Numbered from the stretch's first letter, positions 60,592 to 62,030 are shown. The stretch is DNA of 64,000 nt from Anaerohalosphaeraceae bacterium (GCA_050309605.1 JBNRMN010000033.1:128001-192000), one strand, 5' to 3'. Notes: generated by a model from the sequence alone, not told the origin. A program made the numbers and translations.

Positions 60592-60629
60592 AAAAAAGCC
60601 CTTCTTTCTTAAGAGAAGGAAGGGCTTTT
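60592..60629. terminator. Bidirectional intrinsic terminator
   Basis: AAAAAAGCCCTTCTTTCT-loop-AGAAGGAAGGGCTTTT between convergent genes. Confidence 0.8.
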
Positions 60630-60667: not shown

Positions 60668-60901
60668 TTACAGGTCCTGAGGTTTTACGGTGCTGCGACG
60701 ATTGGCCTCGGTCCGCTTGCAGGCCGCATCCAGAATCTCGTAAACGCACTCGTTCAGCGCCGTCGCGGTTTCGGACGAACTCATCATCCCTTTGTCTTTG
60801 ATGTACGCCTTGACCTTGCTGGTGACAACCAGCATTTCCTTTGCGGCGGCCTTTTTGGCGGCCTTTGCTTTCTTCTTTGCAGCAGCTTTTTTCTTTGCCA
60901 T
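60668..60901 (-). CDS. Bacterial histone-fold protein (Bd0055/HBb-like) with Lys/Ala-rich N-terminal tail
   Basis: GGAGGTG RBS; LVVTSKVKAYIKDKGMMSSSET...RTEANRRSTVKPQDL aligns with the Bdellovibrio histone and ends in the histone R-x-T-V-x-x-x-D motif. Confidence 0.88.
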   Translation of the reverse strand: MAKKKAAAKKKAKAAKKAAAKEMLVVTSKVKAYIKDKGMMSSSETATALNECVYEILDAACKRTEANRRSTVKPQDL

Positions 60902-61228
60902 TTCGGCACCTCCATGTTGAAAATAACGTTCCAATAAAATCGACTCTCGCGAGCCGAAAACCACGATTACGGGTATTTTGAAAAGGTTTTGGCGTTATTT
61001 CAACAAAAAAATCCACAAAAATTCACATATTTTGCACTTATAGAGCCTATAAATGCAAAATTTGCAGGTTTTTCAGCTGCGCCGCTTCTGCGGGATTGAC
61101 TTTTTCCGTCATTTCCGCGGTTTTTGGTTAATCGCTTCGCGTCTATGGTCGATTTGAAATTCGTAAACCGTGGCCTTCGAAAAGGCTTTAACCCTGCGAG
61201 TGCTGTATTTTTCGCGGAGAGCAATGCG

Positions 61229-61564
61229 ATGAATCGAAAGACCCGAAAACGAACGACCGACCTGAAGGATTATGTGACCGTGGCCTTCGCTGAGGACCTG
61301 GATCTGGCTCGCCAGTATGGCAGACTTCTGGCCGAGCAGGACATTCCGTCCGTTATCAAGAATCTGGGCAAAGCGCAGCAAGACGGCCAGAGCGGGATTG
61401 CGGTGATGGTGCCGGAAGAGTTTCTGGATGAGGCGTATGTGCTGATCAGTGAAGAGGCGTCGTATGACGATTTCTTTGATGCGGCGTTCGAAGACAACGG
61501 CTACGAAGGGTATGAACAGCGCGACCCGTCTTTTTATGATGATGACGAGGACGATCTCTTTTAA
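61229..61564 (+). CDS. Hypothetical protein (DUF2007-like) with acidic tail
   Basis: LLAEQDIP...IAVMVPEEFLDEA; GGAG RBS. Confidence 0.65.
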   Translation: MNRKTRKRTTDLKDYVTVAFAEDLDLARQYGRLLAEQDIPSVIKNLGKAQQDGQSGIAVMVPEEFLDEAYVLISEEASYDDFFDAAFEDNGYEGYEQRDPSFYDDDEDDLF

Positions 61565-61595
61565 GCTGCGGTTTGCGACGGCACAAATCAAACCA

Positions 61596-62030
61596 ATGAA
61601 CCCTATGACTGACAGGCAGCAAAATATGACGGAAAAACTGAATCCACAGCAATCGGACGTAAGCAGTGAAGATACGCGCCAGGAAAAGCGAACGACCTCG
61701 GAGGAATCGGGCGGTTTTACGGAACGCCGCAAATTCACCGAACGGCGGCGGAATCTGGTCGATCGCCGCAGCGGTTTTGATCGGCGCCGCGGTCCGGGAC
61801 ACCGGCGCACCGAGGAGCGCCGAGCCGCCGAAGAAGGCGAAATGACCGACGAGCAGTTCGACTTTTTGATGGCGATAGACCAATACAAGCGCGCCAACCA
61901 GCGTCCGTTTCCCACCTGGACGGAGGTGCTTGAAGTGGTCAAGGCCATCGGCTACCGCAAAGTCGCCGAGCCGCAGCCGCTTGAATCATTTCGCAAGGCG
62001 GACAAAAGCCAGCCCGTCGAAGTGGGATAA
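61596..62030 (+). CDS. Hypothetical protein with tandem ERR/DRR repeats and C-terminal YK..N.RPFPTW.EVL domain (start uncertain: 61596, 61605 or 61626)
   Basis: TERRKFTERRRNLVDRRSGFDRRRGPGHRRTEERR; EMTDEQFDFLMAIDQYKRANQRPFPTWTEVLEV. Confidence 0.7.
   Translation: MNPMTDRQQNMTEKLNPQQSDVSSEDTRQEKRTTSEESGGFTERRKFTERRRNLVDRRSGFDRRRGPGHRRTEERRAAEEGEMTDEQFDFLMAIDQYKRANQRPFPTWTEVLEVVKAIGYRKVAEPQPLESFRKADKSQPVEVG

Follow-up and report, generated by a model that had tools for sequence, protein, structure and literature searches.

The histone locus

We analysed a window of 64,000 nucleotides from a planctomycete of the Phycisphaerae type, an Anaerohalosphaeraceae bacterium (GCA_050309605.1, JBNRMN010000033.1:128001-192000) and concentrated on a short gene encoding a small histone with a basic N-terminal tail. 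Translation of the window sequence places an ATG on the minus strand at the head of an open reading frame (ORF) of 77 codons, which stands alone, flanked by one convergent and one divergent gene (table 1). It is single-copy in the genome (3.40 Mb, 97 contigs, 99.7% complete), and a protein search retrieved 1337 homologues of its product at E ≤ 0.001. The tailed histone is thus a feature well beyond chance.

The gene carries recognizable expression signals. The initial annotation of the locus described a 77-residue ORF with a strong ribosome-binding site and a downstream terminator, and both elements were retrieved: a Shine-Dalgarno sequence lies just before the ATG, and a hairpin bordered by T-runs follows the stop codon. 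Judged from its sequence, this hairpin is terminator-like in both directions and separates the histone gene from its convergent neighbour. Upstream, a consensus scan identified a promoter-like block. Its T-run, TTGAAA/TTGCAA box and CAAAAT box are kept in an alignment of the upstream regions of eight loci (the own family plus one neighbouring family), and the block would act as the promoter. Downstream of it, the putative leader contains a predicted hairpin with compensating changes at 7 of 10 predicted pairs in the same eight sequences. Comparison of this region with Rfam gave no credible family match. The hairpin could stabilize the leader or serve as an attenuator.

A mechanical ORF list had placed the start at a GTG (60964), which would yield 98 residues. 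This codon lacks a Shine-Dalgarno sequence, the added residues show no conservation at the protein level, and the extension overlaps the conserved promoter and leader DNA. We rejected it as over-extended, in agreement with the initial annotation.

Table 1. Features of the histone locus and the two other genes with lysine-rich starts. Positions are those of the window unless a contig is given.
Feature	Position	Strand	Remarks
Histone gene, 77 codons plus stop	60668..60901	-	ATG at 60901; coding part 60671-60901; stop 60668-60670; 1337 homologues; single copy in genome
Tail-coding part, residues 1-23 MAKKKAAAKKKAKAAKKAAAKEM	60833..60901	-	net charge +9; 10 Lys, 10 Ala
Histone fold, residues 24-77	60671..60832	-	predicted alpha1 27-36, alpha2 43-66, truncated alpha3 74-76 (AlphaFold2 model)
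Shine-Dalgarno GGAGGTG	60907..60913	-	5 bases before the ATG; GGAGGTGCC before the MAKK start in 7/7 own-family loci
Leader hairpin (7 bp, predicted), then U-rich stretch ATTTTATTGGAAC	60940..60957	-	hairpin common to 8 loci from two families
Promoter-like site	60975..61003	-	T-run, then TTGAAA, 17-nt spacer, CAAAAT; consensus scan
Terminator-like hairpin	60594..60629	both	T-runs on both sides; 16 pairs on +, 7 pairs counted on -
Convergent neighbour, 228 aa	59879..60565	+	hydrophobic N-terminus; C-terminal Ada zinc-binding domain (E 2e-9)
DUF2007-like gene	61124..61564	+	divergent from the histone gene; followed by the Arg-rich ORF, then trpA
Arg-rich ORF	within 61124-62030	+	conserved C-terminal part
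Pyruvate phosphate dikinase gene	contig C33:214764	-	outside the window; lysine-rich start
Stand-alone poly-Lys ORF, 51 aa	contig C95:21689-21844	+	outside the window; divergent from nadD

Fold and family

Searches against the sequences of the Protein Data Bank (PDB) with phmmer gave the histone HLp of Leptospira perolatii as the best match (9qt0, E = 2.2e-16). HBb/Bd0055 of Bdellovibrio came second (8cmp and 8fvx, E = 4.6e-6 and 5.5e-6) and HTkC, an archaeal face-to-face (FtF) histone, reached E = 0.1 (9f2c). With a profile of 125 homologues these values became 5.8e-27 for HLp, 4e-14 and 7.9e-14 for HBb, and 3.4e-13 for HTkC. We then built an AlphaFold2 model on an alignment of 125 of 271 proteins, comprising the query, every third of 115 close matches of at most 81 residues, and 85 representatives of 55-90 residues, from which 16 apparently truncated or chimeric representatives had been removed beforehand by eye. 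The mean predicted local distance difference test (pLDDT) score of the model is 80, with means of 85-95 for blocks of 10 residues from residue 21 onwards. Foldseek retrieved HLp chains 9qt0_A and 9qt1_A as top PDB matches (TM-score 0.97 on the target, root-mean-square deviation 0.6 Å, 54% identity over the fold), while HBb chains gave TM-scores of 0.81-0.86 at 41% identity. The top matches were all histones. Hence, the bacterial histone fold proposed in the initial annotation was borne out by the predicted helices and their structural matches.

Bacterial FtF histones have been described in Spirochaetota, Planctomycetota, Bdellovibrionota and Myxococcota (Schwab et al. 2024, PMC11390915). The same source defines alpha3-truncated histones, and in our model alpha3 is cut to 3-4 residues, with a DSSP helix at 74-76 and the end of the protein at 77; the truncation is shared with HLp and with HBb (8CMP, 8FVX, 9EZZ). 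According to this classification, bacterial dimer histones differ from FtF histones in having lost R48 and N52, two conserved residues that make dimer-dimer contacts. Both residues are present here, as R63 and N67 at the end of alpha2, together with an arginine in loop 2 (R69). All three are at least 90% conserved in the alignment used for the model, and the pattern RxxxNxRxT is kept in 148 of 150 Planctomycetota copies. The RKTxxxD motif of the dimer histones is replaced by RSTVKPQD, so that the RKT of HBb reads RST. The sequence is closer to an FtF member than to the other histone groups: it does not cluster with HBb, which is the second-best PDB match and about ten orders of magnitude weaker.

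Comparison with HLp, for which residues were mapped through the PDB alignment with a correction for two additional N-terminal residues in the PDB chain, is more detailed. The dimer-dimer interface of HLp was reported to involve R49, S52, N53 and R55 on one subunit and T61 and F63 on the other, with an RD clamp between R55 and D62 (PMC12701072). R49, N53 and R55 correspond to the tetramer residues R63, N67 and R69, and the RD clamp is kept as R69-D76. The reported DNA contacts of HLp are A13/S14/K15, K17, K21, T27, G29, T56 and T57 (PMC12701072). Four of them, S14, K15, K17 and K21, are found as S28, K29, K31 and K35, and T71 is also kept. The residues that differ from HLp are T27, S41, S43, A66, S70, Q75 and L77; five of these, S41, S43, A66, Q75 and L77, take the places of T27, G29, S52, T61 and F63 of HLp.

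A model of four copies of the protein scored 0.87, while the best of three controls scored 0.00. Among proteins of solved structure, 20 of 30 that are pairs of one chain attain this score, as compared with 1 of 23 that are single chains. Contacts agreed between runs at 98% or more, and the pLDDT of the partner chain was at least 81. The predicted complex consists of handshake dimers joined by a second interface at residues 62-63, 66-67, 69 and 73-76, which is the type of contact seen in HLp, and both ends of each dimer touch the other dimer. Sequence and models together identify the product as an FtF (HLp-type, predicted tetrameric) alpha3-truncated histone and an orthologue-level relative of Leptospira HLp. 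The initial annotation had assigned it to the Bd0055 type. The likeness on which this rested is significant, but it is not the best available, and the assignment itself fails given the HLp match, the retained R63 and N67 and the second interface of the model.

The N-terminal tail

The first 22 residues (MAKKKAAAKKKAKAAKKAAAKE) comprise 10 Lys, 10 Ala, one Met and one Glu, and residue 23 adds a second Met; Arg, Gly, Ser, Thr and Gln are absent. Of the net charge of the whole protein (+11), the tail contributes +9 and the fold only +2. The tail is predicted to be disordered: residues 1-20 have a mean pLDDT of about 50 in the AlphaFold2 model, and no tail residue takes part in any interface predicted by the four-copy model. 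A role as signal peptide or in secretion was considered and discarded, as the tail contains no hydrophobic stretch.

The tail is, from its sequence context, translated as part of the protein, starting at MAKK. In all seven own-family genomes GGAGGTGCC lies 5-7 bases before the MAKK ATG. Two of these loci, L002 and L007, have a GTT or GTC codon directly before the fold and offer no other start with a Shine-Dalgarno sequence. Since this codon cannot start translation and the only Shine-Dalgarno sequence is the one at MAKK, the tail must be made there. These observations uphold the basic tail with 10 Lys in 22 residues that the initial annotation had proposed as part of the protein. They also speak against the start at the internal Met (MLVV) that it had named as the way to refute the tail, and which we examined and rejected.

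To characterize the tail among relatives we took the best 120 of the 1337 matches, as clusters at 90% identity, after trimming five over-called N-termini to an internal MAK start and leaving one (P0007) as called. A tail is present in 120 of 120 clusters, with a length of 7-30 residues (median 20) and a net charge of +2 to +12 (median +8); in 114 it has at least 10 residues and a net charge of at least +4. It begins with MAK in 118 and ends in Glu or Asp plus one residue in all 120. Over all tails pooled, Lys makes up 43%, Ala 29% and Arg 0.4% of the residues. Hence, the composition of the tail is conserved across homologues and its length is not. At the position of M23, 44 clusters have Met, 58 have Val and 18 have Pro, Ile, Ala or Ser, which means that the internal Met is replaced in 76 of 120.

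The tail had initially been called eukaryote-like, and this holds in one sense only. Like the tails of eukaryotic core histones and of Asgard archaeal histones, it is a (predicted) disordered basic extension N-terminal to alpha1. Tails of H3 and H4 contain Arg, Gly, Ser/Thr and Gln alongside Lys. Here we find Lys, Ala and one Glu, without an H3/H4-type motif. The KAAK at residues 13-16 and the AKKA at residues 15-18 are Lys/Ala tracts of the H1 kind. By composition the tail is thus H1/H2B/HupB-like (the sense in which the tails of HupB and HupS are also comparable) and not H3/H4-like.

Distribution of the histone and of its tail

A profile search retrieved the histone in 185 of 401 Planctomycetota genomes, and in 123 of the 244 that were at least 90% complete and at most 5% contaminated. 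It is present in the six other genomes of the own family and in both genomes from two other families of the order, i.e. in all nine sampled genomes of the order when the window's own is included. Four further families of the class are represented by 15 genomes (97-100% complete), and the profile search found the histone in none of these. Its distribution in the class is therefore sharply split.

We surveyed the tail in the 150 Planctomycetota matches listed (a further 54 lie outside the survey), calling starts by the Shine-Dalgarno score. Eleven were re-called by rule to an internal Met near the fold, and one spurious domain match was dropped. A basic tail, defined by at least 10 residues and a net charge of at least +4, was found in 77 of 150 copies. 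Another 44 have fewer than 10 residues before the fold, and 29 have at least 10 residues that are neutral, weakly basic or acidic. The state of the tail follows lineages. For example, basic tails occur in 7/7 copies of family f1, 16/16 of f31, 7/7 of f74, 6/6 of f56, 7/8 of f28 and 8/10 of f27, and in none of the copies of f66 (0/11), f52 (0/9), f54 (0/7) and f84 (0/5). In a genome of family f3, which belongs to the same order, the tail is (AKKT)n-like and has 46 residues and a charge of +18. On a FastTree phylogeny of the 54-residue fold the tail changes state at least 23 times, as compared with 40-59 times (mean 50) in 200 shuffles of the labels; as a tree of 54 columns is poorly resolved, the figure of 23 is probably too high. 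The tail is an inherited trait, but a labile one. The variation in length and the frequent gains and losses in Planctomycetota argue for an independent origin of the tail and against homology with the tails of eukaryotic histones.

A wider search of representatives at 50% identity gave 303 matches, 150 of them listed. Among the matches listed the picture beyond this clade is similar: there are many tails of the MAKK type, some with up to about 70 residues of (AKKx)n, as well as tailless, acidic-tailed and tandem-doublet forms. The tail is not peculiar to this gene, given its presence in all 120 of the closest clusters and, in basic form, in about half of the Planctomycetota copies. We also noted six histone-fold homologues from the representative search (P0144, P0145, P0216, P0224, P0233 and P0259). 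Some have signal-peptide-like hydrophobic N-termini followed by ...AARSSKPKEIVVVGSKVKE, and others are tandem doublets.

Lysine-rich starts elsewhere in the genome

We scanned the whole 3.4-Mb genome for ATG codons that follow a Shine-Dalgarno sequence and open a Lys-rich, low-complexity segment of 22 residues. Exactly three ORFs passed: the histone, pyruvate phosphate dikinase (PPDK) and a stand-alone poly-Lys ORF (table 1).

In PPDK (loci L152 and L154-L165), a Lys/Ala/Thr-rich segment of 22 residues (MAKAKAKAKTTKKKTVAKKPSK) with its own Shine-Dalgarno sequence precedes the canonical MVYFFGGG. An extension of 22-30 residues was found in 5 of 5 own-family loci examined, and a sixth genome of the family also matched. 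Ser replaces the canonical Met in one locus, where the extension must therefore be translated. In the seven loci compared from other families of the order, PPDK is longer by no more than 6 residues. Among the literature matches listed we found no description of a Lys-rich N-terminal extension of PPDK.

The stand-alone ORF (loci L153, L166 and L170-L189) is made almost entirely of Lys, Ala and Thr and has a strong Shine-Dalgarno sequence. Scans of Pfam and NCBIfam gave no family match. Synteny places an ORF of this type at the same position, pointing away from nadD, in each of 20 family loci considered, with lengths from 33 to more than 100 residues and a start of MAKK or MAKR. A plain protein search in 20 family genomes returned nothing, which is an artefact of low complexity given that synteny recovered all 20.

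Proposed function and alternatives

The HLp tetramer has been reported to wrap about 60 bp of DNA (Hu et al. 2025, PMC12701072; PDB 9QT0-9QT2). We propose that the histone described here acts in a comparable manner. The fold of 54 residues would form handshake dimers, and two dimers would close into a tetramer through contacts of loop 2, alpha3 and the C-terminal end of alpha2 (R63, N67, R69 and Q75-D76). If HLp is taken as the guide, this tetramer would be wrapped by about 60 bp of DNA irrespective of sequence. Translation from MAKKK provides each subunit with a predicted disordered Lys/Ala tail of 22 residues. This tail leaves the fold 4-5 residues before T27-S28-K29, the equivalents of the residues that contact DNA at the 'paired ends of helices' of HLp. 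The four tails of a tetramer, with a total charge of about +36, would most likely lie on the wrapped DNA or between or on neighbouring duplexes. There they would raise the affinity, neutralize phosphate charge and possibly help to compact DNA or bridge duplexes, in the manner of the Lys/Ala-rich tails that HupB and HupS add to an HU fold. Hence, the most likely role of the tail, judging from these analogies, would be additional DNA binding and charge neutralization. Fold, family, the tetramer-type interface in silico, the start of translation and the conservation of the tail come from comparative and structural predictions on this protein and its relatives, and the contact of the tail with DNA and the wrapping itself would follow from its likeness to these other systems.

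The closest precedents for such a tail are found in other proteins. The C-terminal PAKK/KAAK domain of mycobacterial HupB was described as indispensable for association with the nucleoid (PMC5676037). In the HupS of Streptomyces, acetylation of the Lys repeats is reported to lower DNA binding, under the control of a Sir2 deacetylase (PMC11229371). These proteins share with the histone a low-complexity Lys/Ala tail, with KAAK and AKKA, on a small dimeric DNA-binding fold. In those proteins, however, a much longer tail follows an HU fold at the C-terminus, whereas here an N-terminal tail of 22 residues precedes a histone fold. Regulation by Lys acylation might be envisaged by the same analogy. 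A domain search identified one Sir2 gene and two HDAC-family genes in the genome, and no match to the SET domain. Since Sir2 and HDAC enzymes are common in bacteria, their presence is not evidence that the tail is controlled by Lys modification.

Among histones, positively charged tails are described as common on bacterial FtF members, where they have been called H3-like (Schwab et al. 2024, PMC11390915); the phylum and this description fit our protein. Long tails were reported to be absent from most bacterial singlet histones (Hocher et al.). HBb has no basic tail, and the N-terminus of HLp, in the structures described, is short and non-basic, with the first 6-7 residues disordered. The nucleoid context may also differ from that of Leptospira, which is reported to lack HU (PMC12701072). 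The genome analysed here encodes one HU, so the histone is not the sole nucleoid protein.

We estimate a probability of about 0.75 that the best overall explanation is an FtF histone with a translated Lys/Ala tail, HLp-like wrapping of DNA and a tail that assists DNA binding. Several observations weigh against it. Pfam and NCBIfam scans yielded no significant family (Histone PF00125 was at E 0.1, under the cut-off), which is why the family was assigned through sequence, profile and fold searches of the PDB. The success of the tetramer model indicates likeness, and it may reflect memory of the HLp tetramer, a structure already solved. HLp wraps DNA without a long basic tail, so the tail is not needed for the basic activity. 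The 73 of 150 copies without a basic tail and the many changes of state point in the same direction, to a dispensable and evolutionarily labile tail. Finally, the polycationic module is, by sequence, portable in this lineage and not specific to the histone, and it may bind polyanions other than DNA.

This last point leads to the alternative that the tail is a general polyanion-binding module whose main partner is polyphosphate or RNA, and which brings proteins together in the same place instead of compacting DNA. The conserved extensions of PPDK and the poly-Lys ORF near nadD are what one would expect of such a module, and the H1-like protein AlgP was reported to organize polyphosphate granules (PMC9239181). 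Yet the tail of the histone adjoins a DNA-binding surface, which makes DNA the obvious partner, and tails of the same kind are described as acting on DNA in HupB and HupS. We regard this alternative as unlikely. A histone of the Bd0055/HBb type, acting as dimers that bend or coat DNA, would account for the significant similarity to HBb and for the truncated alpha3 of both proteins. It is a very unlikely description of a protein that matches HLp about ten orders of magnitude better, keeps the R/N contact residues described as lost in dimer histones (PMC11390915) and forms an HLp-type second interface in the four-copy model.

Two further alternatives concern the need for a tail at all. Translation could begin at the internal Met23 (ATG 60835-60833), giving a tailless histone of 55 residues with the Lys/Ala stretch as mere leader. 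There is indeed an in-frame ATG directly 5' of the fold, and the shorter of two annotated forms of L. perolatii HLp was judged authentic from the position of its Shine-Dalgarno sequence (PMC12701072). In our gene, the same kind of evidence favours the longer form: the Shine-Dalgarno sequence precedes the MAKKK ATG, and none is usable at the proper spacing before the internal one. The frequent replacement of the internal Met in close homologues, the GTT or GTC codons of two own-family loci and a tail frame that stays open and Lys-rich in all seven own-family genomes despite changes in length make this start highly improbable. The stretch could also matter as RNA instead of peptide. A-rich, unstructured 5' coding regions favour the initiation of translation, and the AAA, AAG and GCN codons of the tail might mainly boost initiation in a highly expressed gene, with no role for the peptide itself. 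The MAKK starts of even short-tailed homologues fit this idea. A handful of codons would, however, suffice for such an effect, while across the order the tails have 19-46 residues, stay in frame and remain rich in Lys. Such a start occurs in only three ORFs of the genome, so it is not general to expressed genes. We find this explanation hardly credible.

We put forward, as a doubtful but conceivable extension, that one portable Lys/Ala polycation module has three uses in this lineage, as histone tail, PPDK extension and free peptide encoded next to nadD. This could form a 'core histone plus linker-like polycation' chromatin, and might tether the pyrophosphate-using glycolytic PPDK to the nucleoid or to polyphosphate.

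Bacterial histones have been characterized only recently. In the literature on bacterial and FtF histones and on the nucleoid of Phycisphaerae we found no functional test of a bacterial histone tail and no description of Phycisphaerae histones. The gene is a clean example for testing a basic bacterial-histone tail because its start codon is unambiguous, its tail holds most of the charge and natural tailless relatives exist in the same phylum. As the existence of such tails is already described in print (PMC11390915), it adds an example and not a new concept. The H1-like tail of PPDK and the free poly-Lys peptide that is conserved in this family are less expected.

Genomic neighbourhood

The two sides of the histone gene differ in conservation. 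The convergent neighbour with the Ada domain is kept only in the closest genome among the seven loci compared. On the other side, the order of histone gene, DUF2007-like gene and Arg-rich ORF is kept in seven related loci, six more from the own family and one from a neighbouring family, and trpA is present in 5 of these 7 within the 3.2 kb considered per locus. The Arg-rich ORF has no Pfam match. The mechanical ORFs for it and for the DUF2007-like gene overlap in different frames, and the conservation of the Arg-rich product begins at about residue 54-75. Its true start is probably an internal Met.

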